Shown: piece after piece, positions 4,268 through 50,715 of the stretch | How the letters are laid out: each line of letters opens with the position of its first letter | Position numbering within the stretch: position 1 is the stretch's first letter | DNA from: Balanoglossus misakiensis | Taxonomy: Eukaryota > Animalia > Hemichordata | Reading direction: 5' to 3' | Length of the DNA: 64,000 nt | NCBI GenBank assembly: GCA_040954595.2 | Contig: CM082584.2 | Location: 3,255,344-3,319,343 of the forward strand | Position numbers and translations under genes: made by a program | The notes under the pieces: model-generated | The model's database searches: none | Told to the model about the DNA's origin: nothing | What the model saw: the letters and a program-made list of their open reading frames with translations, nothing else

Positions 4268-4439
4268 CTGAAAAATAAAAAAAACAAATAAGCAATAGTA
4301 GAGGGATATATTTTAGATTTAGCATGTTTCCAAATACTTGATTTGTGTTGGAAAGTTACACAGTGGCTGTGACCTATATCTATATATGTACAACAATTAC
4401 ATAATGGAATTTTCATCTAATTCTTTAGACAGGAATATT

Positions 4440-18509: not shown

Positions 18510-19062
18510 TTGATTTCGATTTCGATTTTGATTTACGAAATAAAAAACTATCTAGATTTTGATTTTGATTTCCATTTCGATTTTGATTTCGATTTCGATT
18601 TTGATTTACGAAATGAAAAACGATCTGAATTTTGATTTCGATTTCGATTTTGATTTCGATTTTGATTTACGAAATAAAAAACGATCTGAATTTTGATTTC
18701 GATTTCGATTTTGATTTCGATTTTGATTTTGATTTTGATTTTGATTTCGATTGTGATTTCGATTTTGATTTTGATTTCGATTTCGATTTTGATTTCGATT
18801 TTGATTTACGAAATAAAAAACGATCTGAATTTTGATTTCGATTTTGATTTCGATTTTGATTTTGATTTTGATTTTGATTTCGATTTCGATTTTGATTTTG
18901 ATTTTGATTTCGATTTTGATTTCGATTTTGATTTACGAAATAAAAAACGATCTGAATTTTGATTTCGATTTTGATTTTGATTTTGATTTCGATTTTGATT
19001 TCGATTTTGATTTTGATTTTGATTTTGATTTCATTTTTGATTTTGATTTCAATTTTGATTTC
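18510..19062 (+). repeat. (GATTTC/GATTTT)n hexamer array in the left TIR, punctuated by ACGAAATAAAAAACGATCTGAA
   Basis: Directly visible; a shorter third array lies at 19925-19992. Confidence 0.95.
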
Positions 19063-21234
19063 GTTTTTCCAACCTTTGAACTTTGACCTTCGTGATTGTC
19101 ACATGATACCTGTGGACCAATAAAAAAGGCTTTATGCAAATATCCAGTATTGTTGAATCGGCTCGGAAGTGGGAAGCCAAATCCCAGCAGACAAAACTCT
19201 GGCGTGGAACGTAGCAGACAAAATACGTAATCCACTTTAAAACTTCAATTTTGGACAGTAGACTTAAATATTACCTCAATTAAACTAATCGAAATTAAAA
19301 TATCCTATATTTAGCTGGAAAAATCACGCCACGGATGGAAATCGCCGACGAAAAATATACTCCCTTCGCGACCGTGCGTTACTTCCTGGTTAAACATTGT
19401 GTAAAGTGTGAGGCCACTGTCCTTTATCAGCAAAACAATACACATGTATAGTCTTAAGGAGGATCATAATGACAGTTTTATGTTGCGACTTACAGGTGAT
19501 TCTCTGACCATACCAATAGAATGATGGGCCATTTACCACATAATTTGGTAAAAACCATAACATGAAATATTATTTAGTTTCAAACTAAAATAATTAAAAA
19601 ATGCTCAGAGCCTTTAAACTAGTCTATGATATTAACATAAAATTCATGGATTTACTCAAACATTTGCATTAAAATGTTAAATGTAACTGTACGGCTCTAA
19701 GGCACGTATAAGCAGTTTGTAGCTTCAAGTGTTATACCGTCCCATTGTCCCTGTCTCTACAAGTTGACCCCATCCTCGATCAGGATAGCTGAAAATCAGA
19801 GGTCAAAGGTCAAATACGATTAAAAAGCTGTTTTTGGCATAAATTTGTCTAAATGTCTTTAATATTTTGTGTTCAATCATTGCACATTTAGTTACTCTTT
19901 CACATGAAATAAAATGTGCAAATCGATTTCGATTTTGATTTCGATTTTGATTTCGATTTCGATTTCGATTTTGATTTTGATTTCGATTTCGTTTTTTCAA
20001 CCTTTGAACTTTAACCTTTGAACTTTAACCTTTGAACCTTTTAACTTTAAGCGTTGGTGTTGTTGACGTGATGCGACGCGTTTCATCGTGTTTTGGATAG
20101 TCTTCGCTCAGAAATATCGTATCACGTAAGTTTTTAGTGTTTAAACTTCTCTGATTTCGCATGGCCGGGGTAAATCACGTGAATATAGGGAGGTCGGTAC
20201 GGTGACCATAGCAAACGATCTTGTCCCGACGGCATGATCACGGGCCCGGCACTTGCTACCTGCATAACCGTAGCGCGAGGTTTTGGCTGGGTTTGTGCAT
20301 GTGGGTGGGTTGGCGTCCAACCCACAAGCCCAGCCAAAACCTCGAGCTACGGTTCTGCAGCTAGGCACATGCATGAGATGATTAGTAATGAACTAGCCAT
20401 ACTTGGCGAGTGTCCGGCTATGAAATGGCCTCCACCTGTTTTGGTGCGGAGTTGTGAAGCGCTAGCAGCGCAGCCATAGCCGGTTACTTGCCATACTATA
20501 CCAGTACTACTAGGCTAAGTCACGAACTTGCTTAGTGAGTCCTGGTACGTAGTAGTAGTAGTAGTAGTAGTAGTAGCCCAACGAGTAACTGCAGTACTGT
20601 AGACGGTTTTGTCGTCCGACGCCCAGGCAAAACCTCGAGCTACGGTACTGCAGCTACCCTACGAGTACATTTCGAGATTGTCCAGCAATGGCTGCGCCGC
20701 TAGCGCCTCACAACTCCGCATCAAAACATGCACGTTCAAAGAATGTTGACAGAAATGCGGGTCGGTTGAACAAACCAAACAATACTCTAAAGCTTGTAAC
20801 ATATTAACTGCCTCGTAATGCCCAAACTAGAAGTCATTTGCAGTGTCCTCAATGACCACTGAGTGACATCGACATCAGCTTGAGTGACTTGTCTTTAGCT
20901 GAGTCAGGGTGTCGCTACGAGTATGGCCAGTAATTATTAGCTATACGACCTATTCTGACGTACGTTATAGAGCTTGATTATCACCTGCGGACCAGTTGGT
21001 TAGAAGTATCGCCCTATCCAAGTTTCAGTTACAATTTAAGTTTTATGTAAGAGTGTTTTGTTTTGGCGCGATTGTGAATGTGACCGCCATAGAGCAGTCC
21101 CTATGACATGTGGCAAACCAGGCAAAACCTTGAGTAGCTCTGCCATGCATTTACATTTGTCATTGCTGTTTACCTGGGTCTAAAAATAATTATGGAAAGA
21201 ATCATTTTTAATATTCTTTTTATATCCTGTGCAG

Positions 21235-21345: not shown

Positions 21346-22811
21346 GTAATGTATATATCTGCCAATTGTAGTACCAGGGTATTACCTAAATATCATAAAG
21401 AGCACTAAAATGGCCACTCATTGCTTTTAACTTTGAAAATGTCTTTTGGGTCCACAAGACATGACATACTGTACACACACATGTATGCATGTTGATTTGT
21501 GTCATACAAACCAATATGGCTGCTGGACGACCATTTTCTTACATTTTTAAGACATTGGCTTATTAATATTAACGAGTTTGTGTACATGTAGCTGTTTTTT
21601 GTATTTTTAATTTTATTGTTGACTCGTATGTCACCTGCAATTTAATTGCAAGCTTTAAAACTCAAAGCACTTTGTGGACAGAGATGTAGGCTGTGTTAGA
21701 TAGTTAGAGATGTAGGGTTATTTAATTGTTCAGAAGATGTAATGATGATGGTGTGAACAGTTTAGAAAAGCAGTGCTCCAAGCACAGCATCTTGGTCAAA
21801 CTGTTACAGAGATGAATCTGTAGCACTTTGTAAGGCTTTCCCAAGACAAATGCTTCTCAAAACTGTTTTTTTATTTATTCCTGTAGTATTGCAGTGGAAT
21901 AGCGGAGAGCAAGACATGGTGTATTTCCTTCACAATTCAGTCGGTTTCTTATACAATCGCCACCAAGATCAGCTTTTGCACACATGATGTGCATACAAAC
22001 ACATGCGTGCACACACACACACACACACGTGTATACCCATGCACACTCATTCAGAGCGTCTCTCACTCTGATCAATTCCGTAAATAAGAGTGCCTATCAG
22101 CTTCAAATACAAAGTAATTTGGTGGTGCGAGTTGAGACTTAGCTTAGCTATATGTATATTTGAATCAGACAATATGTGCAATATTGTAGCTATCTGTTGT
22201 GTACTTGATTGTTACCCCCCCTTCACCCTCCAATATTTGGTATGGCCCCATTGTTGTCAGTGGTATGGTTGGACCTATGGACAGAAAATTAGGGTGAAAG
22301 GGTTTGGCGGGCTTTAGAGACTTTTGATTTTTTTTTGTACAGACTTGCATAGACGTTAACTTTTTCATTTTGCATAAAATTGCAAGCAAATTGATTTTAC
22401 CCTGTTTGCTTTACTTTGTGGGTCCTTAATTCGGTTTTATCTTTAAAAATTTGTATTCTGTAACCTATTCCTATTCCGAATTTTAACCTTTTCTTCAGAA
22501 TCATGCAACTGCTCAGACTATCTCAGATATTATTATATTTTTAACAACATCCTTTTTTATGGCAAATAAATATATTGAAGTCTGAACCAGGTGTTTAAAA
22601 GTCTCTTCTGTCATGTAGGATGTGTTGAACATGAAATTGACCGTATGTGTTGTTGGTTTTGTTATGTTTTGTTGAAAGGCAGCTTTACGTCGCGATGAGG
22701 GGTCTTATGACACCAATGATTCGTCACCAAAACTTTCAAAGGGGTGAAATAGCGCCCTCTGACGACGAACAACTGATAGCTACAACGGTCAGAGTTCAAA
22801 GGTTGAAAAAA

Positions 22812-23292
22812 CGAAATCAAAATCAAAATCGAAATCAAAATCAAAATCGAAATCAAAATCGAAATCAAAATCGAAATCAAAATCGAAATCGAAATCAAAA
22901 TTCAGATCGTTTTTTATTTCGTAAATCAAAATCGAAATCAAAATCGAAATCGAAATCAAAATCAAAATCGAAATCAAAATCGAAATCAAAATCAAAATCG
23001 AAATCGAAATCAAAATCGAAATCGAAATCAAAATTCAGATCGTTTTTTATTTCGTAAATCAAAATCGAAATCAAAATCGAAATCAAAATCGAAATCGAAA
23101 TCGAAATCAAAATTCAGATCGTTTTTCATTTCGTAAATCAAAATCGAAATCGAAATCAAAATCGAAATCAAAATCAAAATCGAGATCGTTTTTCATTTCG
23201 TAAATCAAAATCGAAATCAAAATCGAAATGGAAATCAAAATCAAAATCTAGATCGTTTTTTATTTCGTAAATCAAAATCGAAATCGAAATCA
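22812..23292 (-). repeat. Inverted hexamer array in the right TIR
   Basis: (GAAATC/AAAATC)n, the reverse complement of the left array. Confidence 0.95.
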
Positions 23293-24459
23293 AAGTTAAA
23301 GTTAAAATTAAAGTTAAAATTAAACAGAAATTAAAAGTTAAAATCAAAGTTAAAGAAAATTCAAGCTAAGATGTTAAGTATAAACACAAAAACGAACAAG
23401 AATTTAAAAAAAAAGTCACAAATAGTATTCTTGTTTCATGAGCCTTCTCGGTTGCCGTACAGGTGTCCTCGACATGACAAATGGGGCAATCTAGCGGCCC
23501 CGTTGTTCCAATATGTCAAATTGCCAGCCTATGCCAAAAAATATATGGCTGGCTTTGGAACACGGGGATCTGTCTGTGCAGACTGCCTCAAACAAATGGT
23601 AAGTCACTCTTTAGTAACTTTTTTGTTATTCTGAAGACGTTACCTGCACAAAAAAACTATCGGTCAATGCTATTGATTCATGTTTAATATACGTAGCGTA
23701 TTTGTTATTTTGCAGAATTTACCCATGAAGTTATTACCATTATTGCATATGTACTACAGTATTCTAAGCGGCCCGTGCAATAATAATTCTGGTATTTTTG
23801 CAAGCTCATATGCAAATGAGCATCCAGAAGAATAAGATCCCCCATTTCCCCTTTAATCGATCGTATCTTTCAAAGTTTAACCCTCGTTCTGTTACACAAT
23901 CACTTGGAGTTCATATAAACCTCCAGAGGATATAACAAAAGTTTTATTTCAGTCGCAAAAAAGCCGATTGTTGTTTTAGTTGTGCGCGTGACAAAGTGGT
24001 ATTTTTCACAACCCATATGCAAATGAGTAAAAACAAGCCGGACTACGTTTTGTTTGTAAACATTGAACGCGGTCGGCAGAGCTGGAGTATGATCGCCGAA
24101 TCGTGGGGAATTTTCAACATTCGGAGACGTCATTGTCTTATCCTTCCCAAATTTTGTCAGAATAACAAAACATTAATTGGCAGTATGTTTGGGAACCTCG
24201 GAAAATTTCTCGCTATCGCCAGTTTCTCAAATATTCATAGTTCCACCCTACGGTATTAAGCAACGCCCCCCTTGGTTACTGTTGCTACGCCCCACAAGCT
24301 TTGAGCTTGTGGGACATTGACCTCCATAGCTCCACAACGTGGATGGGGAGCTAGATTCGTTCAGCGATAGTCTGCGCAACGTTCCTGGCGATATTTCTGT
24401 ATGCTACCTACCAGAGTTAAAAAAACAATCCAAGAAGTCACAGGAAAAGGGTTTAATTA

Positions 24460-25856
24460 GGGAGCATTCGTTTTTTTACAGGGAGGGGGGGGGGGGCGGT
24501 GGAAATCATGGGGGGTTACTTTTACAAAGCAGTTTTTAGGGGGGGACACATTTTATAATCAATGGTTTGGGGGGGGACAATTTTTACAACAGATTTGTAT
24601 GGAATTATAGCAAAAAACAACAGAATTGACCGTAAAAAGTATAAAATAGAATACGACCATGTCTTTATTCTGTGTGATCAGGTGACAACAAGTACACTTT
24701 TGATCACAAAAATAACATTTTCAGGCTGTATCATGGCAATATTATGACATACATCACTTTTAAAACTCTTTGGAAACTGAAAAAATAGCTATATTCCGAA
24801 ATACGGATATATGGAGTGTTTGCAAAGATTTTCAGACTTTGTTATCACATACACTCAAACAAACAGGATTATATAGATAAGAACACAAATATAGATAAGG
24901 CTGCATTCACAAACACCTCTGGAGGGGGGGGGGCAGGAGAATTGAGGGTATGTAAGGGGGGATTTGAAATAATTTAGGGACTAACTTTGAGCGGGGACGG
25001 TTAAATTTGTCCTCCCCAACATACCGGTAGTTGAGTTAATTTGCTTTTGCCGGGTTCATTAAAATGCAGCTTTGAGCTCTGTATTTTACAAAATTTTCTT
25101 ACGTGGGATGGGGGACACCCCCTCCCAAACCCACCCCCTTCAATTCTCGGTTTACAATGTCTCCCAACACAGAATACAAATACTTAAAAAAAAATACAAA
25201 CAATGTTCAGTTTTAATACCCACTGATGAGGGGAAACATCAGTTTAAAATTCTTTTCATGGGAGTGCTGTTTTTCTTTTTTTACAAGATAGATAGGTGAT
25301 GTGTTCTGTGTGAAAGAAAATGGGGGGGGGGATTTCAAAATGTTGGCAGTTCGGAAGAGGGGGATTTGAAAATATTTCGGGTTGTGTACGGGGGGCATGT
25401 GAAAATTAGCGGTAAAAAATTGAATTCTCCCCCCCCCCCTCCAGAGATGTTTGTGAATGCAGCCTAAGAACACCAATGGGAACCTAAAAGGAATCTAAAA
25501 ACCCTTGTACAAAGCATTTGTACAAGTTGTATTAAAAAAATACTGTCTATGACATCACGTACAGCTACTGTGGCTATAAGGTAGAGTGTAATGTTAAAAA
25601 CTGAATGTAATTCTGAATAGAATCATATGTCAACAATAACAATCGTCAGTCTAAATATCTGACAAAGTTTGATAAGTTTAATCCGGTGGATAAACTTTTT
25701 TTTTTTTTGGGGGGGTCACATTTTACAATTGAAGAATTTAGGGGGGGACACATTTTAGAAAAGTAATTTCGAAGGGGGGGGTTGCCTTTTACATTTAGTC
25801 GGCGACTCAAATTCCACCGCCCCCCCCCCCCCTCCCTGTAAAAAACGAATGCTCCC
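24460..25856. mobile_element. PIF/Harbinger (Tourist-like) MITE
   Basis: TIR GGGAGCATTCGTTTTTTACAGGGAG(G)nCGGTGGAA with TSD TTA on both sides. Confidence 0.9.
24899..25464. mobile_element. Harbinger MITE nested in the previous MITE
   Basis: TIR GGCTGCATTCACAAACA.CTCTGGAG(G)n with TSD TAA (24896-24898, 25465-25467). Confidence 0.9.
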
Positions 25857-25861
25857 TTAGG

Positions 25862-25996: not shown

Positions 25997-27255
25997 TGTT
26001 TAACACATACATAGACCAAGTGTCCATGAAATTGAGCTTCTTTGTGAATTTAAAACATTTCAGCGAAAAAATAGCACTGTTTTAAAAGGATCAACAGATC
26101 ATGTTATGCGGTCGGGGTGGCGGTCACAAACGGACATTAAACCACGATCAGCTGTTAGTAATAACGGGCCCCGAAGGTTGAGTTTATCGTGCTGTTTCTG
26201 AGTGAAATCAAACGAAATATGAGACACAAGATGTATCACTTCACCTGACGATATTTTTGGTAGGTAAATATGGATGAAAACACTGATAACGCGGCAAATT
26301 CAACTACGTGAACGTTACTTGGATTGACAGCGCGCGGCCCCATTGTTTACAACGCCGGACATTTTATAAGGGTTGAACAACATTGACTTTTCGAATGGAA
26401 ATTGCAAGCAGTATATGAATTTCAAAATTTTCAAACACTTTAGCAATAAATCATTGTTAAATATTTATATTGAAGACGTGTCAGTTTAAAATCTAAACGC
26501 AAACTTTTAATATCCACCACCTGAGACACCTCTCTCTCTGCGTTTTTGGCTTCGGAAACGGAACAAAAAATCTACTCGATGTTGGGTCAAGGTACCTTTC
26601 ATCCGATTTACACGTCCCCCAGGCGCATCTCTTCACTATTCTGGCCGATATTTTAAAACCATTAAGTTCCTAAAACTGAAAAAAACTTCCAGTCTGTCTA
26701 TCTCTAACTGAGCGTGTACTGTAGGCTGGGCCATGTTGTTGATTATATGTGGGACAAAATGGCGGTTGTGTGAACAGCATGACTTTTCTCGGCTCTGATT
26801 GGCTGAGGGTTCAGTGTGATTGACAGCTGTGGAACCATGAATTACTGATGCTATCCTGCGACCTGAGCTAAACCACTGATGAAATGAGCCAACATGATCG
26901 CCGAAACATGCGGATTTTTCAACATTCTGGCACGTTGTTTTATTATCCTTCCCAACTATCGTCAGAATAACGGAACATTTAGTTGTCAGTGTGTTTTGGA
27001 ACCTCGAAAATTACGAAAATCTCTCGCTTTCGCCAGTGTTTCAAAATTTATCGCTGCGATCTCACGACCTCAGGTAACCCACTGATGGAATGACCCCACA
27101 TGACCCTTCTTTGCATAACAAAGGTTGCGTCATTTTGGCCAATGAGCGGCCTTCTCTGGGTTGCATAGCCTTTGGCGCATCACTGTAATGAAAATCAATA
27201 CGCCACGATCGAAACTTTGATTTTCGTCAAATCTGGGGAAACATATGCAATAATA

Positions 27256-27440: not shown

Positions 27441-28499
27441 CATAGCATGAACTATTGTTGTGTTTATCAACATGTATTCAAGTTTGGAAAGATTTTGACA
27501 TAAAAATTCACCAGGAACAGACAGGTGCTACAATAAACGCAGGTGTGGGATATACAATGTCAATAATTCAATAACCATAAAATAACTGTAGACACTAAAT
27601 TATTTTTCAGTCAATCTTGAAAAAAAAATCGCACGCTGCGACTTGGAGGACACCGGCAGCGATTCCTGAAGAACCAAAGGTAAATGAAAACCTGTGCTGC
27701 ATGTATTTTCAACTCTGACAAAATATTTGAGGACCACACAGGAACACATTATACACATCTTTTTTATTGTGAAGAAATTATTCTGATTTATATGCCGCAC
27801 AAAGACAACAACAATGCACAGATAGTTATGTGTGTATGTGTGATACATGTACATATCTGATTAAAATGGTAGTCAGGCCAGTATTTCATTTTGATGCAAG
27901 TCATGTTTATTCTTATTGTGTGTTTTTTTTGCCTATTAATTTACTTGATTCATCATCAAAACACACAAAGCAAGCGACTATGAAAAAAAAGACAAACCAT
28001 AAGCATTAATTGTATTGTATTGTATTTTTATTTGTATTTACAGTCATGTTTAGCCACGGAGGCCGCTGGGTCATGCCAGCCTCATATAATGGAGGTGAAC
28101 TGTTACGTAAGTTTCTTGCGTATTGTAAACCCTTGAAATTTTGGTTAGCTTGCAATAGCCAAATTGAAGTAGATTTTTTTTAATTGTTCTACTGGTCTTA
28201 CTTACATGAGTGAATAATAATTTAATGTTTTAAAACTTGCATTTATTTCAGGAGTGTGAACATGAACAAAATCAAAAGAAGACTGGCGAAGAGAAAGACA
28301 GAAGCAAGGTAATTGAAATGGTCTACAATCAATGCAAAGAAAATGCTGTCAGTTTGGGCCTTGAAATGATTAAAATGGTATTTCTGAATAAAATGTGTAT
28401 TTTATTTTATTTTATTTTCAGGACAAAGAGAAAATAAAACAACTCGAATGAGAAATTGAGAGACCGAAAAGGGAAATCGGGGGGAGGTTAATACAAGGG

Positions 28500-30774
28500 A
28501 AAAGAGGGTGGAAGCTATAAGGGAAATTGGTAAATTAGAAAATTTAAAAATTTACAGGCATGCAGATCTCCTCTGCCAAAACCAAGACAGGTATTCCGTT
28601 CAAAATTTATCAGACATAGATTTACCTAATCTATTGTCAGAATGGAATCCTGTCTTGGTTTCCTTTCTTGAGGAGATCTGTATGCCAAATACTGGAATCC
28701 AAAGTAACACTCAATATCTTGCCCATGCCGTTGAACTTGTTTATACTACCAGGAATCCTAAGTTTGTGAGTAGTTTTATTTCTGCAATAATATTCAAGTT
28801 ATTTTATTTAGTTTGACCAGAAGTCGCCTGGCAGTTGATCTCATGGGCCACGTAACAGCAGGCCCATGTTATGATGTCATTAACAATATTCTTTTTAAAG
28901 GTAATTTTGATTTTCCAGATGCACCTGAGGGGTGAGTTGAATTTTCTTTTGATAATGAACAACATCTTTCTAAAAATTACATTAACAGAAATGGTAATTC
29001 AGTTACTTTGGATATTTTTACTAACATTATTGCTTCTCAGCTGGACCCAGAATCATCACTGCAATATGATTCTGGGTTGAAGCCAAGTCAGTGGCAGAAG
29101 GTTTCAGAGACAGATGTTTCCAATACAGAGGACAGCAAGTATGATGAGTTTGATTCAGTTGTCAAAGAGTCCATTGCTTCTTATGTTGATAATTTAATTT
29201 TATCTTCTGTAGCCACTATCAATGTAGATAATACACCACAGACTGACTATATTGACACATACTTACAACAAAAACAACATACTGACAGCATCGAGATTTG
29301 CCCTAAGTGTGGTTTCACCCACACAAAGGGCAAATCGAGAATTGCTAAGTGTCGAGGTTGTGGCATTTGGATGGGTAAGTATAGGAAGGAGATGAAAAGA
29401 GAGAAGACATCAACCTTTATTTCACCAGGCAGAAGACCAATTAAAAAGAAGAAGAGGGGAACCATCTTGCATGAGTATGTTGGTGAAGAAAAGGTTGATC
29501 ACATGGGTAAGCAAACTACCAGAATTGTTAAAAAAAAAAAAGCAAATAAAGCAAATATTTCTGTTATGTCCCCTATTTTTGTAAATCCTAATTGTGTCGA
29601 ATCAGTGAAATAAATTCTTAATCACATTGGTAAGCTTGCAAAAATCAAACAATATTTTAATCATGGTGAGGGCAATGGAGATTATTGTACATGTAGGGAA
29701 TGGGTTATAATCAGGTGTGATGGCTTGCCATATGTAATTATCCGGAAAATTTTATCAGAAGATCATGAGGGAATATTTTCATGGGTTGTTTTAAGGACGG
29801 GTCTTTTACATGAAGAAATCAATGCAGTCAAATCATTTGTTTCTATGTATTGGGATGTAATTTACAGGGACTTTGCTCTATCTCAGGGATTCTCCTCAGG
29901 CAGATCTCTAGAATTTGTGAAAAAGTGTTCTGATCATCACATTTCATTTGACCTTCTTTGCAAATTCAGAGATTGTCTGTGGAGCGAATTGCTACATGAA
30001 TTTCATGTGAGTAATCCCACTGCTGATGCATCCACCAGTTTGTTTCTTGGCTGGTTGAATGCAGCAGCAGTGACAGACTCTCACATGAATTTCCTTTACA
30101 ATATTCTTCTACAACATTTACATGGAATTTTCCTCTTTCGACAGGGCACGCGCTTCAATTCACCCACTTACCTACGGGCTGGATGGCGTCTCCTTTGCAC
30201 CTTGTGGCACGGTCGGAATCACTCCACTTACCAACTGATTGACGTCTATGACGACACCGACCGTGCCCGGTATCCACCAATACTTCTCCAAACTCTGGAG
30301 AAGTACGAGGCCATTTCACGATCTGGCAGGCCTGATGCCCATCAACGTGCGGACGCCGTCCTGGAGGAGTACAACAAAAGCATCAAGGCCTGGGCTCCTC
30401 CAGTGCCCGATTCAGGTAAGTGGGTTGTCATCTGTAGCAGGCATGATGCCCTGGCCAGTCTGAGAAAGACAGTCTTCTCAGTCGTTAGCCTTGTAAATCC
30501 CGAGTCGTTGGAACGTAGCCGCCCAGGCTATTCTAACGACTTGACGGGTTTCAGGGGACGACTGAGACAGACATCTTATGTCAAGTATCAGGCTGGTCGG
30601 TCTCCTATTACCATCTCAGGAGATGCTATGGATAGACACATTGGCAATCATAACATCAATGCCGAAGAAAGAAGACGTGCCCTGGTAAGTATCATCTCCC
30701 AAGGTAAGTATCCAGGCACTGGCAAAAAAATACTATTTGTAACAGAAAATGAAAGAGCTGAAAGTGAAAGATAA
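28500..30774 (+). pseudogene. Large DDE-type transposase pseudogene, Academ-like (family tentative)
   Basis: Motifs FDNEQ, CPKC...CRGC, REWVIIRCDGLPY, GLLHEEIN and DAVLEEYNK. ORFs 29008-29613 and 29725-30774 share a frame and are separated by one TAA. There is a frameshift near 28790 and a TGA near 28933. Confidence 0.6.
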
Positions 30775-32163
30775 GAAAATAAAACAAATGCCACACTTCG
30801 ACACGAATGCAACGACATAATTCAGACACTACCGTTGACAGACAGAACATCACTGCATACACAACTACGACAGGCAACAAACAAATCCAAGCTCCTGGAA
30901 TTACTGCACAGTTTGCATGATTTACAAGGGGCTATTACAGAAGTGTTTGAATTTGAAATGCAACAGTAAAATTATCAGTGTATTTCAAATTCAAACACCC
31001 ATTCCCCTTGTCTATCATATTAACTGTGCACAAAACACAGGAGTCTTGGCAAAACATACATACACAACACAGTACCAAATTTAATTACCCTAGCTACATA
31101 TTTTATTGATTTATATATTTATAATCTTTTTTTGGTCATATTTCACAGTTTATCTATTAGTTTACCATCTATCTATATTCTTTTTTTTTTACTTTCCAGG
31201 ATTTAATCTCTTTTTAGTGTGTATCTTTTTTTTTCAATTATGTATAGTCCTCTTGAGGAGCAGATGTTACTGAAAATCACTGCCACTGTACTTGCTGACC
31301 AGCTGAGGAGCTTAATGTCAATATTATTTTTATTATTGATTTTCTATTTTCTAATCAACAGAATTTATATATTTTTTTTATTATATTTTTATTGTAAATT
31401 TATTTGAAGGTTTCTAAATAGGAATGAAACAAATGAATTACGTTTGATATTAGAACCCAGCATTGAAACATTATTTCCAGTCAATCATGTGATAAAAATT
31501 CAAATTATGATCATTTCCGAATTTCATTTTTTTTTAAATCATGACACAATTTTTTTTCCTATTTAGAAACCTATTCAACTAACACTTCAGGTGCAATGTT
31601 TTACTTTTATTTTATGCTTTAATTACATTTTCATTATCTTTTAGGTTTACATGTATTTATTCTTTTACGATTTATTTTTATTTGTTGGCAAAATATTGAG
31701 TGTCATTTAAATTTTTTTTTAATAAACTTGGTTTCATATATTATTTAAATACAGCAATCATTTCTTTCGCCAAATTAGATTCCAGTATTATTTTCTTTTA
31801 TCATTATTTATAAATTATGGGAGTTGATTTGTTAATGGTTATGGGGTTGAATTGGGTGGGTTCGGAGTTGATAAAGTTAAGAGAGATTTTTGTGCATTGT
31901 TATAATACTCATGAATTGAATGTAATATTATATGATTTTTTAGTTCTTTGTAATAAAAATCTGATAATCTCAAATAGTGGTCAGTTGTGAGGAGTCATTT
32001 ATTTCAATTTCATGCCATCTTATTGTAGCTTTTTGACAATTGGAAGTTTACAAAATTATGCATTCATTATTTTTTTTTTTCAAAAATAATCATTTCAATA
32101 AAACAAATTACGAAAGTGGCAACATCATGAAATGTAATTTTAATTTCTTGACAGTAGAAACAT

Positions 32164-32370
32164 CAGTGCTTCATCTAGGGGAATTCACCCCCTTGTTGAC
32201 ATAATAGCACCCCCTAGGAATTTGTCAAGGGGGAGCCAATGCCCCTTAAAATGACGTTCTGTACATGTTGGAGATATTACAGTCTGCCTTGCCAGAGTGG
32301 AATCCCCCCTAATTATTCTGGCAATGGGGGACATATCCCCCCTGTCGATGCTATCCTAAATGAAACACTG
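32164..32370. mobile_element. Small MITE with CAG...CTG ends
   Basis: 16-bp TIR with 14/16 matches (cagtgcttcatctagg / cctaaatgaaacactg); no clean TSD. Confidence 0.5.
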
Positions 32371-32890
32371 AAATATGATTTAAGACAATGAACTATATTC
32401 GGTGACTGAAGAAACAGTATAACATAAAGAACACCATGTGTACATGACAGATGTCCGGGATATCATTTGAAAACCTACCACAATATAAAGCTCTTCGACC
32501 GTGTAGGGGATAAACAGTAAACATCACCGGCGGTTCAAGTTGCAGAATTTTCATTTGATTTCACCCTTTTACTGTCAGGTTATCTGGCCGATTCCCCCGA
32601 TCCTTCTAGATCAATAATTAATTCATGCACAAATACTAATTGTTCCCTACCTTGATAAAAAAAAAAGTTTAAAAAATCCCGACTCCATCATGACGAAGTA
32701 CATGAACGTTTGTCCAAGAGCATAAGCCAAAGGTCATTTGAGGTTAATTAATGCTGATGACCTCAAACCACAAACGCGAAACCCGTTCCTATGCGATAAC
32801 AAACAGTTGAAAGAACAACAAAATAAATTTAAAAAATAATACAATAATTACATCAAAACATCAAGTGATTTTTTTTTCAAACGGTATATG

Positions 32891-32924
32891 TCTTTCTGGA
32901 GGATGTGTGGCCCTGAAAAGGGCC
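32891..32924 (-). terminator. Histone-type 3' stem-loop plus histone downstream element
   Basis: The minus strand reads ccaaac GGCCCTTTTCAGGGCC acacatcct CCAGAAAGA. The stem-loop (32909-32924) lies 53 nt after the stop at 32978. Confidence 0.85.
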
Positions 32925-32977
32925 GTTTGGTTTGGTTGCGGTGTGTACCGCCAGGCGTAGACGGTGTCACCAGTAAT

Positions 32978-34535
32978 TCAGGCAATCACCGTCACATTTA
33001 ATCCCTTGCTCTCCACGAACGCCTTCACTCTTTGTAGGTCGCCTTCTTTCAGGTGAAATCCAACATTACACACCTGAACGACGCCGCATCGTCGAGAATG
33101 AAAAAAGGGACTTTCTTTTGGTTTGAGGAAATATACGGAATTTGGAGATAGAGCCGCATCGATCAATCTTGCGAGCACTCGAGCGACATCTCTCTTCAAA
33201 TGTCCGTATATTTCGCGGGCGCCTTCTTCATTGTCGACGATTGCGACGGCGTTCTGATCGTATGGGTTGGATTTCTCCCGCAGAAGGCGATACCCAGCAC
33301 CGACAGTAAGTGCACCTTTAGGAACCGTTCAGTTTTTACGGCAGGGGGGGGGGGCGGCAAGTTTGTGTCATCGGTTCTCAAAATCAGGCCGACCCCCCCT
33401 TCACCCAGGACCAAACAATGATGACCCCCCCCTTTGACAGACCCAAAAATATGATGACCCCCCCCCTCCCCACGCCCAAAAGATTCGCCGTCCTGACCCT
33501 ATGTACACTGTATGCAATAAAGGGCTCCTCACACCTCAATTCTATATTTCTTAAAGTATTATTGAAGTACATTGTATATAATAGTATATCGTTGCAATAA
33601 AGAAATCTATGAACAAATTAAAATGACAAGTCAATACAATAGTTGCTAGAATCGGTAAAACAAGAAAAGTGGCGGGGGTGGGCGTGGGAGGGGGTGTCCC
33701 CCTCCCACATAAGAAAATTTTGTAAAATACGGTGGTGATCAAAGTTGCAATTTAATGAACTCAAAAGCAAATTAATTCAATGTTAGGGAGGAAAAATGTT
33801 AATTTTGCCACTCCACTCAAAGTAAGCATCGGGGTGGGGTGGCAAGAAGTCTTCCCTGGTACACTAGACAAACCAGTGAATAAATGCAATGTGGCGAAGA
33901 ATGGAGGGGGTGGGTGTGGGAGGGGGTGTCCCCGTCCCACATAAGAAAATTTTGTAAAATATGTAGCGCAAAGTTGCATTTTAAATAACTCAAAAGCAAA
34001 TTATCTCAATGTTTGGGAGGACAAATTTTACTTTTTGCCACTCCACTCAAACTTAGAAGATTTGGCGTCATCTTGTCATGACATCATTTATAAAACTTCT
34101 AGTATACAGAAGATGCAGCCCGAAATCAGTTATGCAAAATGGTTTAAACAATTATCCTCCTTTATGTATTCACTTTGCTAAATATTATCATATGTGGGGT
34201 TGGGGTGGCAAGCACTCTGCCCTGGTACACTTGACAAACCAGCAAAAAATGAAATGTGGCGGAGAATGAAATTAGAAAATTAGAAAATTTTGTAAAATAA
34301 AGGGTGCGAAACTGCAATTTTGTGGACTCAAAACCAAAGGTTCGGTGGCAAAAGTATGTGACCCCCCCCCCTAAACGTTTAGTGGACTTCAAAATTTGTG
34401 GACTTCAAAATTTAAGTGAACCCCCCCCCCCCCCTTGGATTTTGCTGTCCCCCCCCCCCGGCCGTAAAAACTGAACGGTCCCTTATAGTGGTGCATCCCC
34501 ACTGCCAGTACTTGGTGTACGATGAGTGAAGGCAT
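32978..34535 (-). pseudogene. Stand-alone HIRAN-domain protein (130 aa) split by a MITE
   Basis: Joining 34535-34483 to 33317-32978 gives an uninterrupted ORF: MPSLIVHQVLAVGMHHYKGALTVGAGYRLLREKSNPYDQNAVAIVDNEEGAREIYGHLKRDVARVLARLID...NVTVIA*. Confidence 0.8.
33321..34482. mobile_element. Harbinger MITE (same family as 42239-42973)
   Basis: TIR GG(G/A)ACCGTTCAGTTTTTACGGC.(G)n with TSD TTA (33318-33320, 34483-34485); internal duplicated ~215-bp unit. Confidence 0.92.
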
Positions 34536-34750
34536 TCTCTGAATAAGCAACTCCTAATATGGGTCATCGATGCGACTGAAATACGCGTACGTTTGTAGGC
34601 AGACAGTGGCGTTCGCGTATGCGTAGCGACGCGTGAATTTTGAGGTTTAGATGTCCGTTTTGAATACGAACGTATGCCCTGCACGCGACGCCTGCTTATC
34701 ACGTGACAACGACGATACGCGTATTGATCGAACGTATTTACATGTAGGCC

Positions 34751-35663
34751 CACAGGGGCCTCTCCCTCCGCGATGTTGTTTGATTGTTTGTTTGTTTGCT
34801 TCTTGTTGTTGTTGTTGTTGATGATGATGATGATGATTTTTGGCATAATAAACAAATACATATTTCTTTATTAATAAATATGGTTTGTTGACATGTAAAG
34901 GTTAGAATATATTCGACAGGTTAGGGTATTATCAACGGTTAGGATTTGTGTTGGCATTTTTTTCGATCCACGGCCCCGGACATATCACTAAGCCACAAAG
35001 AGAGACAAGGGTGGAGACTAGCCCATTTCCGGGTCCCAACACCGTATTTTTTAAGTCCAGAATAACACAACAAATAAATGTCTGACAATTGAAATATTAC
35101 GTTTGCAGTGACAACATACTCTATACTTACTATATCTATCCTGTAATTCAATAAAAAAGTATAAATCGGCGATATTTCACATCGTTCTCCGTTGACATCC
35201 GTACAGTTTTTACGGCACACCATGGGCAAACTTAAATGTCTCGTTTCGGAAGGCTAAAATTCAAATTGGACCAATCAAATAGCTTGTTGGGACCAGGCTG
35301 AAATCGACTTGCAGGACTAACAAGCTATTTGATTGGTCTAATTTGAATCTCACTAACGTTTTTAGCCTTCCGAAACGAGACATTCAGGTTTTGCCGTACT
35401 GGGCTAGTTTCCACCCTTGTCTCTCTTTATGGCTTAGTGATGCCCGGGGCCGTGGATCGAAAAAATCCCAACACTAACCCTAACCTGTCGAATATACGCA
35501 CCCTAACCTTTACATGTCAACAAACCATATTTATTAATAAAGAAATATGTATTTGTTTATTATGCCAAAAATCATCATCATTATCAACAACAACAACAAA
35601 AACAACAATAACAAGCAAACAAACAAACAATCAAACAAAATCGCGGAGGGAGAGGCCCCTGTG
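34751..35663. mobile_element. Foldback MITE, P-superfamily-like
   Basis: Termini CACAGGGGCCTCTCCCTCCGCGA, 7-bp TSD GTAGGCC, arms of about 280 bp, and a second palindrome at about 35237-35382. Confidence 0.85.
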
Positions 35664-36551
35664 GTAGGCCCAACTAAAGGCCGCCGCACACGAGAGAAAT
35701 CAGCTGAGCAAAAAGTCATTCGAGGAATTTTGCTCAGCAATTTTCCTTCCGTGTGCGGGCGATTTTTCCTGATCTTTTTACTTTGCGCCGCGGATCACGA
35801 TATTCAACATGTTTGATATTTTTTTCCTCGCGAGGAAAATTCATCACCGTGTGCGCAGAACAAAGTAATTTTACTCACGTATCTAGCCTTATTGCGCATG
35901 CGCCGGCATCACTTGACGATGATACAAGACGGCCGCCTCCACTGAAAGCGAGCATTGATGACAGCACTTGTTGTGGTAAGTAATATATGCATAGTACAAT
36001 GCGCTTTCTTCACGGACGACTACTTTTTTTTTCTAATGAAAAAATTTCCATGTCTCGATATTTCCTATCGTCCGACGCCCGTGGCAAGTATAATTTTTCG
36101 TCTGGGCAAGTGAAAAATAACAATAATCTGCCTGACTGACCACGTACGAGTCGAGCGACCGTGAACTGCAAACGAGTTTGTAATCTACACTAGGACCTCC
36201 CATGTCGTGGCGTGTGTTGCATTGCCTGTACTCTCCTGCATAGTACAATGGATGGCCCTTTTGACCTTTTATCTACACCAAAAGCAAAATAGCAAAGTTT
36301 ATTGGTTTACAAAATCGTTACACTTTCGCTACAGTTTACCTATATTTACAAGTCGACTGTGGGCTGTTTACATGATCAGCTGATGATTTGTTGTGAACGC
36401 TGCGTTCAAGCTCGCTGACGTCATTTCACGCACCAATATGGTAAACAGAGTGTTAATATCGATACGGCTATACTGAGGTATATGTAAGCAGAGAATCAAA
36501 ATTGGGTGTTAAAATAAAACCTTTAATGCACTTTCCCTTTTCAGTTCAGTA

Positions 36552-39215
36552 ATGGAATTGACAGATTCCAGTGCATCAGAGGATGAAGAAGCGTTATTAT
36601 TTCTTTTGCTGCTTCGTAGACGTCGACGCCGGTTGAGAGCGGCAGCTCGAACAACCTGGGCTCGACAATGGATTTTGCGTCGACAGGCTCAAGGAGCATA
36701 TGCAAACCTGATCCAAGAGTTGAGGACTGAAGACCCTGAAAGCTTCCGCCAGTTCCATCGACTAGACAGGCAATCCTTCCAAGATGTCCTGGCAATGGTT
36801 GGCCCGCTCATTTCAAAACAGGACACAAATATGCGATCAGCAGTTGATCCTAGTGAAAGACTTGCTGTTACATTACGATTCCTTGCTACAGGTAGGTAAA
36901 ATAAATGCTGGCAAGTGATTTAACAAAATATATGTTGATGTTTTCAGACTAGTTCAAGTTAAGGTCAAATGTATACGAGCATGTGGGTTCATAAACCTTG
37001 TGTAGCACATGTTGGACATCATGTGTTTTTTTTTTACTATTTTCAAACAATTTTCAGCATTGCTAAAATATATTTAACTAGTCTGGGAGTTAATGATAAT
37101 TTTGTTATTCTTTTTTAGGAGAAACGTTCAGAAGTCTTTCCTTTCAATTCAGAATAGGGGAGAGGACTGTATCAGCCATTGTCGAGGAAACATGCGGGGT
37201 CTTATACACTGCAATGAAGGAACAGTATTTGAAGGTATTATTTGATTGCTAATTTTATTACAGAAATCAATTGTATAACAATGACATTTTAATGACTTCT
37301 TTGCCATATCTGTGACATATTCTGTTTAACATTTTAACAAATAAATAATCTTGTTTATCATTTTAACAAATAAATAATCTTGTTTATCATTTTAACAAAT
37401 AAATAATCTTGTTTATCATTTTAACAAATAAATAATCTTGTCTATCATTTTAACAAATAAATAATCTTAATCTATAAATGTGTTACTGCATAGAAAAAAT
37501 TAACAACTAACACATAACCAGAAATAGATAACATGTATAACAACACAATATTGCAAAAATGCCCAGATAAATATAATAAATAATACAAGATAAATTGTAA
37601 AAATGCTACATTTCATGCAATAAAATAGCACATTAAAAACAGAGTTGTGGAATTTATAATTACCCATTTGCATACAGCTCCCATTAATGATTTATATTCT
37701 AATTTGTTCCCCTTCAAATGTATACTTGTAAGTAAACTTTTAAAATTGACCAAAACTAATGCAATAAATAGCGTCAAGGACGCTTTGGTCTCATTTGTTT
37801 ATAACAAAAACACTTTCTAAATAAAATATTGAAAATTTCAGCTAAATGGGACTTTTTACATTTGAGTATAGATTGGTGGTTCATCAAAGGGTACATCAAC
37901 ATTATTGGGACCAGAACATTGCTGATGTGGTACATTCCAGTTTTGTTGTGTAAAGGGATGGGCAGGCTGCTGGTAGTTGTAGGGACTATAATTGGCAGGC
38001 ATTAAGGTTCCAGACTGAGCCTCAAACAAAATGTTGTTAATACGATGCTGGGCCAAATGCCTCACCCTGGGCTCAAGGTCTTTTAGTGCCTGGGACACAT
38101 AGGTGCCGAAGGACTGTATGGCACTGTTTTCCTGATATTTTTTTGTCTTTTATTTCTATCTGCAATCGATGCAGCAACCCCCTTTATAAGTTCATACTCC
38201 ATTTCAGCTTGATGGCGTTTTGAAGATTTGTTTTTTGATTTTACTGGTTGTTTTGGTTCTACATCATTGGAATCTTCAACATTTAATGTGGGTTCTTCAT
38301 CTTCATTATGCCTGCTAGTATTAACTTCATCATCCACTGAGGATGGGGATGGCTGAAATGATAAAAAAAATCACATTTAATAACTTCTTATCCTTATATT
38401 CCATTTTGTTTCAGACTCCAACATGCATGGTAGACTGGATAATCATTTCTGATGAATTCAAACAGAAGTGGAACTACCCATGTTGTATTGGGGCAATAGA
38501 TGGCAAACACATTGCCATAGTGCAGCCACACAACAGCGGGTCCGACTTTATTAATAATAAGCATTTTTTTAGTATATTGTTTTTAGCGTTAGTTGATGCA
38601 AATTATAAGTTCATATGTGTAGATGTTGGGGCAGCTGGTCGTGAAGGTGATGCATGCGGGTTCAATCACTCTGTTCTCAAAAATGCGTTGGATGCCAAAT
38701 GCCTAAACGTACCTCCACCAGATAATGTAGCCGGGAACAAGATAAACTACCATATCATTGGGGACGATGCCTTCCCAATGTCAACAAATTTGATGAAACC
38801 CTACCCTCATAGGCATCTGGAGAGAGGGGAAAGGATTTTCAACTATCGCCTCTCCCGTGCTCGGCGGGTTGTTGAAAATGCTTTCGGGATTCTCGCAAAT
38901 AGGTTTCGTGTTTTTCACACATCAATCAATCTCAGCCCCGATAGAGTTACAGCTTTGGTTTTGTCAGCCTGTTGTTTGCACAATTTTATGGTGGATAAAA
39001 ACAAACATGGCTACACTAGTGTTTCTGACAGTGAAGATATTGAAAACCACACATTCACTGCTGGTGCCTGGCGCAATGATCCAGCACTTACTGGATTGGC
39101 ACCAGCACTTGACAGAAATCCAAGTAAAGATGCAAAAACCCTGCGTAATCTTCTGACTACCTACTTTTCTGGAGTAGGCTCAGTCCCATGGCAAAACCAC
39201 ATGGTCACGTTTTGA
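36552..39215 (+). CDS. Harbinger (HARBI1-like) DDE transposase, 3 exons: 36552-36891, 37119-37234, 38415-39215 (418 aa)
   Basis: GT-AG introns in matching phase. Motifs ERLAVTLRFLATG-ETFRSLSFQFRIG, GAIDGKH, GDDAFP and FNYRLSRARRVVENAFGILANRF. No stops. Confidence 0.9.
37331..37468. repeat. 29-bp minisatellite (about 4-5 copies) in the transposase intron
   Basis: cattttaacaaataaataatcttgtttat repeated. Confidence 0.85.
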
Positions 39216-41959: not shown

Positions 41960-43440
41960 CCATCGTAGCATTCGCTCAGGAGAGTTATCGATGTTGCTCT
42001 TATGCTGTGGTTCATATAGCGTTGACTCAGATCCGGGGCTGTAGAAATGACTGACATTAGTCGTGGACAGGCTGTTCTTTCCGATCGGTTTGTTTTTCAT
42101 ACCAAACGCTATCACTGACATGATACTTATCGCGTGGACGATGAAATAGAGCATCACATACCGGGTTCATCTTGCAAACGTAAAGTTCAAATGCACTGAC
42201 AGGACACTCGAGTGGGTTTGATGAATTGACGTACATAAGGGACCGTTCAGTTTTTACGGCCGGGGGGGGGGGGGGGGTCGGCAAGTTTGTGTCACCGGTT
42301 TTCAAAATCAGGCCGACCCCCCTTCACCCAGGAGCAAAAAAATGATGACCCCCCCTTTTGACAGACCCCAAAATATGATAGAATTGGTAAAACAAGAAAA
42401 GTGGCAGGGGTGGGCGTGGGAGGGTGTGTCCCCTTCCCACATAAGAAAATTTTGTGAAATATGTAGCGCAAAGTTGCATTTTAATGAACTCAAAAGCAAA
42501 TTATCTCAATGTTTGGGAGGACCAATTTTACCTTTGCCACTCCACTCAAAGTTAGAAGATTTGGCGTCATCTTCGTCATGACATCATTTATAAAACTTCT
42601 AGTTTATAGAAGATGCAGCGCAAAACTATCAGTTATGCGAAATGGTTTAAACGATTCTTCTTCTTTATGTATTGACTTTGTTAGGCACTCTGCCCTGGTA
42701 CACTAGACAAACCAGCAAAAAATGAAATGTGGCGGAGAATGAATGGGGTGGGAGGGGGTGTCCCCATCCCACATTAGAAAATTTTGTAAAATAAAGGGCG
42801 CGAAACTGCAATTTTGTGGACTCAAAAGCAAGAGTTCAGTGGCAAAAGTATGTGACCCCCCCCCCCTTAACGTTTAAAAAAACCAGATGACCCCCCCTTT
42901 TGGACATCAAAATTTAAGTGACCCCCCTGGATTTTGCCGCCCCCCCCCCCGGCCGTAAAAACTGAACGGTCCCTAATACCACCCGACACCCAGTCGTCGT
43001 CGACCTGATGGTTCTTCGTTACTTCACTACCGACCTGAATAACAAACTTGTTATCGCTATCGTCCGCCTTTATTTCAAAATGTACTATGTGGAGATCCCA
43101 TTGACTTTCTCTACCACGTCGGCAAAAAAAGCATGATGTTAAACCACACTTTATGAATTAGGTCGCATCAACATCGGAGCGAGAAAATAGCTCGCGAGTT
43201 TCTTGAAGTCGCCCGGAAGTATTGCTGGCTTGTGAACGACGTTTCCCTTTCTTGGCTCTTCAGCTGCTTACATACGGCCGTGAACATCTTGCGGCTTTCA
43301 GAAAACTCTTCGCCATTTACAATGTCAAAGTTACGGCGCAGTGGTGGTCGACTGTAGTAACGCTGGATGCCATAGCGAAGTGACTGCAGCGATTTCTTGG
43401 AGCATTTTTCTCCTTTCTGTGTACGTTCCTCTGGGTAGTG
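41960..43440 (-). pseudogene. Crypton-type tyrosine recombinase (DUF3504; ZMYM/KCTD1/QRICH1-related), degraded and MITE-split
   Basis: SKKSLQSLRYGIQRY...FDIVNGEEFSESRKMF, CPVSAFELYVCKMNPVCDALFHRP...WYEKQ, PIGKNSLS and YMNHSIRATSITLL (HxxR); several frameshifts. Confidence 0.85.
42239..42973. mobile_element. Harbinger MITE inserted in the Crypton recombinase
   Basis: TIR GGGACCGTTCAGTTTTTACGGCCGG with TSD TAA (42236-42238, 42974-42976). Confidence 0.92.
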
Positions 43441-48337: not shown

Positions 48338-49345
48338 TTACAGTACAGTCTCTGTAGAGGCGTGAAGTGGATTTGTTGAATGAACTACCCGTTGTGCTAC
48401 TGATATGGGCATAGTGTTAGTGGGTCCCTGTGAAACACCACATGTACAATAGCAACATACTTGCTTCACTGCCTTTCTGTACTGGGAACTGCTCACTGTG
48501 TATATGAATGGGTTTATGGAACAGTTCAGGGTGAACAATATTTTAGCCGTCCGAGAAAAGACAAACAATCCGTCCATCTGGGGAGATTCTGGCCTATAAA
48601 CGCCGTCTTCTTGTAAGCTTACAATGAAAAATAACACCACAGCGGGGATGACGCTGATGAATATAACGACGTTTGTTATAATGACGGTTCTGAGTACTTG
48701 GGTTAGTTCTCTGAAGGCGGGAAGTTTCCAACCTCGTTTCGAAGACTTACTTCGTCTGTGGATAGTTTTTACGATCAAGCTGTACAGTGTTGTTGTTTCA
48801 ACAACACAGACGAACAGGACAGCCATGATTAAATACAGACAGATTATCGCAAATCTGTTCTGCTCGCTGGGGTGGAGAAATTCTATACAAGTCCCGGCTT
48901 CAATAACTGCCAATGTGAGACTTAGCGTCCACGTTGCCATGACACCAATTGCCAGGTTTTTCGACCTTAGTAAGAAAGCTTTGAATGGATGGCAAATGGC
49001 TACGTATCGTTCGATGGATATTAAAGCGACTGTCAAACACGACTCGACAAGTGGTATAAACTGTGTCATCGCGTGCAAGGCACACGGGATAGTCATAAAC
49101 ATACTGACGAATACATTGAATAGCCATGTCAGATCCGATAGGGCTAAATTAACTAACAAAATGTTAGTTTTGGTTTGAATAGCTTTGGCTTTGCAAAAAA
49201 CGATAATGAATGAAAAGTTGTTCAAAATACCAACATTTGCTATGGCGAACTCAGTGTACTTTATGAGCCCGATCAGTGCATCGACGCTCGTAAGGCTGGT
49301 AGAATTATTTTCACCACAGATTGCTTCTTGCGTTGAATTATCCAT
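48338..49345 (-). CDS. Intronless rhodopsin-class (class A) GPCR, 335 aa, orphan
   Basis: Seven hydrophobic segments; GILNN (TM1), NLALSD (TM2), ERYVAICHP (TM3), TM4 Trp, NCSINPFIY (TM7); N-glycosylation sequons. The ATG at 49345 is preferred over the upstream TTG. Confidence 0.92.
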   Translation of the reverse strand: MDNSTQEAICGENNSTSLTSVDALIGLIKYTEFAIANVGILNNFSFIIVFCKAKAIQTKTNILLVNLALSDLTWLFNVFVSMFMTIPCALHAMTQFIPLVESCLTVALISIERYVAICHPFKAFLLRSKNLAIGVMATWTLSLTLAVIEAGTCIEFLHPSEQNRFAIICLYLIMAVLFVCVVETTTLYSLIVKTIHRRSKSSKRGWKLPAFRELTQVLRTVIITNVVIFISVIPAVVLFFIVSLQEDGVYRPESPQMDGLFVFSRTAKILFTLNCSINPFIYTVSSSQYRKAVKQVCCYCTCGVSQGPTNTMPISVAQRVVHSTNPLHASTETVL

Positions 49346-50715
49346 GGTGGTCAATTCCTCACGGCACAAATGAATGTCTTGATGGGTTGAATCTAAAACT
49401 GAAGGTGAAGGTATTGTTTCCTGCCTGGCGACCTCCGTTAAGTATTAAAACTGTTAATGAGCTTGGTTGGTTGGTATCTTAGGTAAATTGGTTACTGTCG
49501 AACGTTGTGGTTCCAATGACGTCACAGGATACCTTGGCAAAAATGTCACAGCCTGCTAGTTATTGGCCTGACGCAAGACCGGACCTGTAAATATTAATTG
49601 ACAATACGTGGGGCTAAATACCAAACATAATCGGTAACGAAAAGTCCTACATTTTTGCTAATACAAGACATATTTAAGTAATATGGTAGATTATGCATGT
49701 TTTGCACTTGTTTGGAGTTGAGTACTGTCGGTAGACTATTTTATACAATGATCATGTTACCCGCATAATTTTTGTCACACACTAATGAATATTAATGCCC
49801 TTCTATTTGTTCATGCTAACACTGAGTGAATCTCTAGTTTAAGATCACTAATGAAAATTCATTTGAAATCCACTGCGCCCTTTGTGGATTGAACATCTGT
49901 TACATAACTGCAACATTTAGGGACATTAACCTTGAACCGTGGGATGATTGTTCAATTTGAAATTCGCGCCTCCATTTCTCATGAATTAATAAAACAATGC
50001 TCAAATAAACGACTGATGAAGTCGTCCTTTCTTGGTTAGTTTGAAAAAAGGTCACTGTGTAGAAAATTTGGAGACACAAATAGGCAACTTTAGTCACTTT
50101 CAATATGATAGGACTATAACCCAGTATCAATTTTCAAAAAAAAAAAATCAAAAAACGTGTTTCAAAGATTGTAACGATTATATGAGTCACGATGTAATAT
50201 ACTTTATCCAGTCATTCCATTGGTAAAAGAGTTTTCATGAGAGTTGTTAGGTGGAGGCTTTTAAAAACCCCAGCCACACAACGAGAGGCAAGTCCTTCAC
50301 TGTCCTTTACTGTCACAACAGTGTAATAACGTGGAGGTGTAAATTCCATATGCGGGTATGTACTTATTGTTAGTTATGAATCGAAAAATTCGACGGGCCG
50401 TGGGCATAGAAAACAATATTCCCATTGTATAACCCTCAACCTACATAAATGTAAATATTCTGACTTATACTTATCGATCCACAAGAACCCTGGACAAGAC
50501 AAAACGTGAACATTATCACCACAGATTTTTTTACATCAAATGATCTTTACAACTTGAAGAGTGTTACTCAGTGTCCCTAAGTATAACAAGCTATATTCTC
50601 TGATTTGCATAGTGTGCTTACAATAATATTATTTCAACTTGAACTAGAGGATATACTATACTTATAGTGACATGTTGTCATGTTACATGTTTTAAAAAGA
50701 CTGTTGAGGTGTCGT

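Follow-up and report, generated by a model that had tools for sequence, protein, structure and literature searches.

A small HIRAN gene, broken by a transposable element, ends in the 3' signals of a histone mRNA on the minus strand of the Balanoglossus misakiensis DNA analysed here (the window, a stretch of 64,000 nucleotides). On balance, it is probably a stand-alone accessory gene of a multi-copy cut-and-paste transposon, intact copies of which would end their mRNA via SLBP and U7 and not by polyadenylation. The window is animal DNA of about 39% GC with many transposon remains, and its main features are collected in Table 1. Apart from the locus discussed here, a Harbinger-type element at 35678-39215 has a DDE_Tnp_4 gene on the plus strand and likely a second gene on the minus strand, with only one terminus found, and a degenerate hexamer repeat of the AATCAA/AATCGA type forms long arrays at 18606-19098 and 22810-23320, within two related elements.

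The HIRAN gene (minus strand, 34535-32978) comprises 130 codons and is split by a 1162-bp, TTA-flanked MITE, which from its TTA/TAA duplication is presumably PIF/Harbinger-like. The original prediction held that removal of this element would restore an intronless reading frame. Its removal does give 130 codons (53 + 337 nt = 390 nt), and an intact homologue of the same length, P0001 (130 aa, 68% identical), aligns to 34535-34470 and 33316-32984. Sequence runs of the same organism (X1, X2 and X3, all from one sample and searched as Logan contigs) bear this out, as contigs from X1 and X2 join 33317 directly to 34483 and skip 1165 nt, which is the element plus one target site duplication (TSD), leaving an empty site. 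MITE-free copies of the gene thus exist in the same organism; the contigs run on into the sequence to the right of the element, and no single listed contig spans the gene from start codon to hairpin. Because the MITE interrupts the frame at this locus, the window copy itself is dead. A sister copy of the MITE, with a TAA duplication, lies at 42239-42974, and three related TAA/TTA-flanked MITEs in all (24462-25860, 33321-34482 and 42239-42974) have a common internal repeat and are very deep in the contigs.

The "intronless" part of the prediction holds for the reading frame itself. Upstream of it, an AG that follows a pyrimidine stretch lies within 5 nt of the HIRAN ATG in the window and in 9/9 homologue loci (judged by eye, without a control), and this arrangement suggests a 5' UTR intron. 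According to the available text on Hydractinia, the H2A.X.1 gene combines a non-coding first exon with a stem-loop (PMC5011920), so a non-coding first exon is compatible with a histone-type end.

Table 1. Features of the window discussed in the text (positions count from the first nucleotide of the window)
Feature	Position	Strand	Remarks
Harbinger-type DDE_Tnp_4 genes	3227-4312 and 36513-39215		Transposon remains
DUF6589-like gene, broken, intron-bearing, putative Academ-type DDE transposase	28045-30969	+	5' limit approximate
Stretch missing from deletion derivative, run X2	32746-33244		Joint 32745 to 33245
Purine-rich downstream element CCAGAAAGA	32891-32899	-	+10 to +18 after hairpin
ACACA flank	32904-32908	-	Predicted cleavage after 32904
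Histone stem-loop, 16 nt	32909-32924	-	6-bp stem, UUUC loop; predicted SLBP site
3' UTR, 53 nt	32925-32977	-	AC-rich flank at end (CCAAAC before hairpin)
HIRAN ORF, 3' piece and TGA stop (32980-32978)	32978-33317	-	Pfam match, alignment to P0001
MITE, 1162 bp, inverted termini	33321-34482		Inserted in codons 17-18; TSDs 33318-33320 and 34483-34485
HIRAN ORF, 5' piece	34486-34535	-	ATG at 34535, codons 1-17, family motif AVGMHH
Acceptor-like pyrimidine stretch and AG directly before ATG	34536-34552	-	Likely end of a 5' UTR intron
Second inverted-repeat MITE, unrelated to first	34750-35664		About 215 nt upstream of ATG
Single-exon rhodopsin-family GPCR ORF	48338-49444	-	
Single-exon rhodopsin-family GPCR ORF	61065-62021	+	

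The identity of the protein as a HIRAN domain, proposed from its motifs, is supported by both sequence and predicted structure. The 3' piece of the reading frame alone matches Pfam HIRAN (PF08797; E 2.1e-10, 40.7 bits against a cut-off of 24.7), and a profile match to HLTF has an E-value of 3.5e-11. An AlphaFold model of P0001, built on 56 rows, has a pLDDT of 95.9, and the top Foldseek matches of this model are HLTF HIRAN-DNA structures (E 6.5e-7, TM 0.73). HLTF, Rad5 and the stand-alone bacterial protein lp_0118 (PDB 3k2y) share the sequence pattern and the fold, and the window copy retains both the NPYD loop and the GHL motif; within the NPxD loop, N35 and D38 each occur in 54/56 aligned rows. 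Unlike HLTF and Rad5, the window protein stands alone at 130 aa, without a SNF2 or RING part. The RYY pocket motif of HLTF reads HHY here, and the pocket motifs are partly kept, with the HLTF residues that we take to form the 3'-end pocket as the reference. By analogy with HLTF, the window protein is predicted to bind 3'-OH ends of single-stranded DNA. A HMMER scan gave 97 matches at E<=0.001, which are mostly stand-alone proteins of 110-150 aa with a few spurious repeats among them, and the named members of this AVGMHH-type HIRAN family are Mytilus proteins only.

The hairpin, 53 nt past the stop, and the U7-type element beyond it were found at the positions originally proposed, with strand, order and spacing as expected of a histone 3' end. 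The full Rfam RF00032 (Histone3) model is matched at 33.7 bits (E 3.8e-8 on 401 nt); since this is 0.3 bit under the gathering score of 34, a whole-window scan at the gathering score lists nothing. A strict hairpin occurs once in the whole window, where 0.002 are expected by chance. The probability that such a hairpin falls within 100 nt of a given stop is 1.4e-6, with a further factor of 0.013 for AAAGA in an 8-position window. When the 111-nt UTR is folded, the hairpin appears in both the minimum-energy and the centroid structures (z -2.0). The words AATAAA and ATTAAA do not occur in the 680 nt after the stop, an absence that is not significant on its own. The histone 3' cassette at this locus is real and well beyond chance, and, judging from its sequence, it is probably functional in intact copies.

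In its 6-bp stem, 4-nt loop and AC-rich flanks, the cassette is the same as the end of metazoan replication-dependent histone mRNAs (RF00032 plus HDE, served by SLBP, the U7 snRNP and CPSF73). The likeness extends to the short 3' UTR, the AAAGA 14 nt downstream of the hairpin, the lack of a nearby poly(A) signal and, once the MITE is removed, the uninterrupted reading frame. The AAAGA is complementary to the UCUUU box of U7, taken as the general U7 box and not this organism's own; the box is described as universally conserved in the available text of PMC5054213, and the accessible part of PMC10730174 places cleavage of histone mRNA 4-5 nt after the loop. RNA from this gene would likely be cut and timed like a histone message. 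Unlike the genes that normally carry such an end, however, the window ORF is not a histone and sits in mobile DNA. The original prediction of a non-histone gene stands, as the locus encodes HIRAN only and the 77 six-frame segments around it contain no histone family. A loose likeness of the translated 3' UTR to the histone H4 C-terminus was considered post hoc and set aside, with no PDB or Pfam match.

The window piece and five proteins (P0001, P0003, P0004, P0146 and P0150) form a clade with support of 100/99 in a 61-row tree. P0004 is 51% identical to the window piece and lies across a 98/91 split of this clade. It extends 48 residues past the end of the family, and its tail holds the peptide KRPFSGP, which is the window cassette translated in one frame (7/7 residues). 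P0004 alone carries a hairpin-compatible peptide among 169 proteins, and alone has the 7-residue match to the cassette among 166 proteins no longer than 400 aa; when the tail was shuffled 20000 times, such a match arose once. The peptide is followed by PPRRE, and the codons for its RRE part could form a run of purines at +14, the position of AAAGA in the window. Only 16/4608 codon choices for the KRPFSGP residues give a perfect hairpin, so the case from P0004 leans on peptide identity. The cassette would lie about 7 codons from the end of the P0004 reading frame, compared with 53 nt in the window gene. On the strength of this one protein tail, the hairpin seems to be kept across the close clade. 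P0004 could come from the same species as the window. In the sister clade (P0005, P0007-P0009 and P0085), the run-on tail of P0008 reads INKINK. This is compatible with AATAAA words and hints, if weakly, at polyadenylation in that clade.

A metagenome scan gave ten more distant loci. Nine are true homologues at 34-41% identity; the tenth, counted among the ten and excluded from the nine, is a 13-residue bacterial chance match (L010). The histone hairpin was found in 0/10 of these loci by pattern search and Rfam, so the HIRAN family works without a hairpin. Once an interrupted locus (L001) and one with an early stop (L009) are excluded, an AATAAA or ATTAAA word occurs within 100 nt in 6/7 distant loci with an intact end. 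The expectation that intact homologues keep the hairpin therefore survives for the close clade, via the P0004 tail, and fails for the distant homologues.

The neighbours of these distant genes are informative about the family as a whole. In five loci (L004-L008), an HTH_psq ORF lies directly downstream of HIRAN (4/5 over the cut-off), with the HIRAN gene 51-81 nt upstream of the start of a pogo-type transposase (4/5 by script, L005 by eye). L006 also has a DDE_1 domain, and in the gene model of P0048, HIRAN is fused to DDE_1. At a sixth locus, L003, the upstream ORF has no Pfam match; we take it to resemble a pogo C-terminus. Relatives are linked to transposases at three places in the tree, including the L003 neighbour without a Pfam match. 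The pogo-type neighbours and the poly(A) signals together indicate that the family is transposon cargo that is normally polyadenylated, and that the histone end is peculiar to a single clade. With respect to pogo, of the IS630-Tc1-mariner group, these distant members thus adjoin its transposase but have AATAAA in place of the hairpin, and the close clade likely replaced the AATAAA of the remaining family by an SLBP/U7 end. Across L004-L008, an acceptor precedes the HIRAN ORF, which is followed by a poly(A) signal (4/5), a second acceptor and the transposase ATG. This layout suggests that a single leader serves two alternative terminal exons, which would allow a switch between helper and transposase.

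In the window, no pogo-like sequence was detected at E<0.5, and the HIRAN gene was likely carried by a multi-copy element, now decayed, to which a DUF6589-like putative transposase gene belongs. This gene is convergent with the HIRAN gene and 2 kb away. Its match to PF20231 (E 0.015) is under the cut-off, and it is 19% identical over 650 columns to P0002, a 981-aa protein that has a DUF6589 cluster (0.88) as its third Atlas neighbour and for which no PDB match was found. A single-sequence fold of the transposase-like piece has a pLDDT of 38. Its DN, DG and GxxH motifs presumably fit an Academ-type DDE transposase, and the link between DUF6589 and Academ is likewise our assumption. Near 30772, where the window has a stop, X1 and X2 contigs have a different sequence, and other copies of the gene are likely to be less decayed.

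Contig depth ties the two genes together to some extent. X2 contigs from 28451 to 33320, which cover the DUF6589-like gene, the spacer and the HIRAN flanks, have depths of 797, 775, 805, 744 and 721, with 42 and 193 further left; X1 depths are uneven (1000 to 4600), and contig depth is not a copy number. The spacer between the genes is under continuous deep contig cover, and no contig bridges both genes. X2 also contains a deletion derivative without the 88 C-terminal codons, the stop, the hairpin and the downstream element. Similar X2 depth together with such a derivative is likely what a multi-copy element with non-autonomous derivatives would give. No terminal inverted repeats or TSDs enclosing both genes rise above shuffle level at the candidate ends, and later insertions cut the region; an imperfect 20-nt inverted match (26124-26143 / 34663-34644) was rejected as the element ends, with a score of 28 against a shuffle maximum of 29. 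The original prediction had left the gene as mobile or viral in origin, and the first of these is supported, as the neighbours at this locus are DNA transposase genes and the distant relatives sit beside pogo-type transposases.

A viral origin gained no support. PolB, SF3 helicase, capsid and packaging ATPase genes were absent from the 14 window ORFs scanned and from the 77 flanking segments, and viral contigs contained neither relatives of P0001, A2 or the transposase-like piece nor a match to the cassette. The two viral-contig loci that did appear encode an unrelated 419-aa phage HIRAN protein without an Rfam match, and prokaryote genomes held no relatives. Stand-alone HIRANs do occur in viruses (Atlas clusters), but the relatives of this one adjoin pogo-type transposases. 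At this locus, it is therefore very unlikely, and largely refuted, that the gene comes from an endogenous DNA virus or a Polinton making use of SLBP/U7. It is harder to set aside a host gene family, domesticated or free-standing, that helps to protect forks in S phase, has a histone end and happens to lie beside an unrelated dead transposase gene. HIRAN domains of the HLTF/Rad5 type act at forks, and such a host gene would fit the missing element ends, the lack of a bridging contig and the absence of pogo-like sequence from the window. The continuously covered spacer, the similar X2 depth over both genes, the deletion derivative and the relatives linked to transposases in three parts of the tree speak against it, and we consider it rather unlikely.

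Contigs of the same organism that carry the cassette without the gene bear on another alternative, in which the element passively captured the 3' end of a host histone gene, and the cassette came along as a passenger or serves simply as a terminator, without selection for a role in the cell cycle. Such contigs share 32-61 nt around the hairpin at 82-97% identity within different flanks, and are probably histone genes. Passive capture would also suit the lack of a hairpin in distant family members and the loss of the cassette from the deeper X2 form (721 for the deletion form, 245 for the other). However, P0004, at 51% identity, appears to carry the cassette at a different distance from the ORF end, which would need long retention or repeated capture, and the 77 segments around the gene gave no Pfam histone match. 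In addition, the hairpin is unchanged in the X2 contig that links it to the ORF (record 13, 32907-33256), in which all 9 differences lie in the ORF. Of these, 5/9 are synonymous, compared with 24% expected (p 0.044). Passive capture is thus unlikely. That same synonymous excess in the ORF, and the fact that each gene has a single hairpin in the precise position of a 3' end, make it extremely improbable that the transcript serves mainly as an SLBP/U7 decoy, which would reduce the supply of host histones and so relax chromatin silencing of the element, with the protein secondary. Even so, a multi-copy element that carries the complete cassette could titrate a scarce snRNP; a mammalian cell is said to have a few hundred copies of U7 in the available text of PMC5054213.

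Two further observations were made in these contigs. At least six from X1-X3 (window 32869-32937) share only the hairpin and the downstream element and have other flanks; in one of them, a 2337-nt contig from X3, the hairpin is close to an end, and another has a 10-nt UTR word in common with the HIRAN gene. It is possible that other non-histone clients are among the cassette-sharing contigs. Separately, in one X3 record (33023-33256), 6/6 private substitutions are A>G on the plus strand, antisense to the HIRAN gene. The pattern may be as from A-to-I editing of double-stranded RNA, in a run guessed to be DNA and a single contig of depth 2.3, where error is possible.

If the gene is indeed a transposon accessory with an SLBP/U7 end, a model for its use can be sketched. 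Intact copies would be transcribed from a short upstream leader. SLBP would bind the hairpin, U7 would pair at AAAGA, and CPSF73 would cut near 32904, about 5 nt after the hairpin, leaving a tail-less, short-lived mRNA that peaks in S phase or is stored in oocytes. Cut-and-paste elements multiply through gap repair or when they jump ahead of a replication fork, and this timing would supply a binder of 3'-OH DNA ends when forks and sister chromatids are present. The HIRAN protein might then hold free 3'-OH ends at an excision gap or fork, favour repair from the sister chromatid and so restore the donor copy. If cleavage is prompt, fewer transcripts would also run on into the convergent transposase gene. 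That the transposon hijacks SLBP/U7 in this way, timing its HIRAN helper to S phase and coupling transposition or gap repair to replication, is possible and is offered as a tentative proposal.

Like Academ/AcademH and Kolobok transposons, the proposed carrier pairs a large DDE-type gene with a second gene that handles nucleic acids; in the available text of PMC9587614, the partner in Kolobok lineages is a helicase, an exonuclease or a His-Me nuclease. The word HIRAN had no match in the available main text of transposon papers, including PMC9587614 and the pogo survey PMC7386202, with supplements outside the scope; other literature in scope, also available in part, comprised PMC4841609, PMC13525598, PMC10294476 and PMC10799480. 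In the main texts searched, with Repbase outside the scope, we found no publication on a non-histone or transposon gene with a histone end or on HIRAN as transposon cargo, and a literature search for HIRAN together with Repbase gave no match. Davila Lopez and Samuelsson reportedly made a wide survey of stem-loop motifs in 2008, which may bear on novelty.

By common teaching, SLBP/U7 serves replication-dependent histone mRNAs and nothing else, and these appear to be the sole mRNAs processed in this way in the available text of a 2008 paper (PMC5054213). A transposon gene with the full signal would show mobile DNA joining this pathway, and HIRAN would become one more accessory protein known from animal DNA transposons. 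The occurrence of a hairpin in some members and AATAAA in others of the same protein family offers a clean pair with which to test the benefit of the pathway for a non-histone gene. The finding bears on how cut-and-paste elements, which are not self-copying, time their activity to DNA replication. If the timing proposed here is true, the HIRAN cargo family would be a natural experiment, with poly(A) in the pogo-borne members and a histone end in the close clade.
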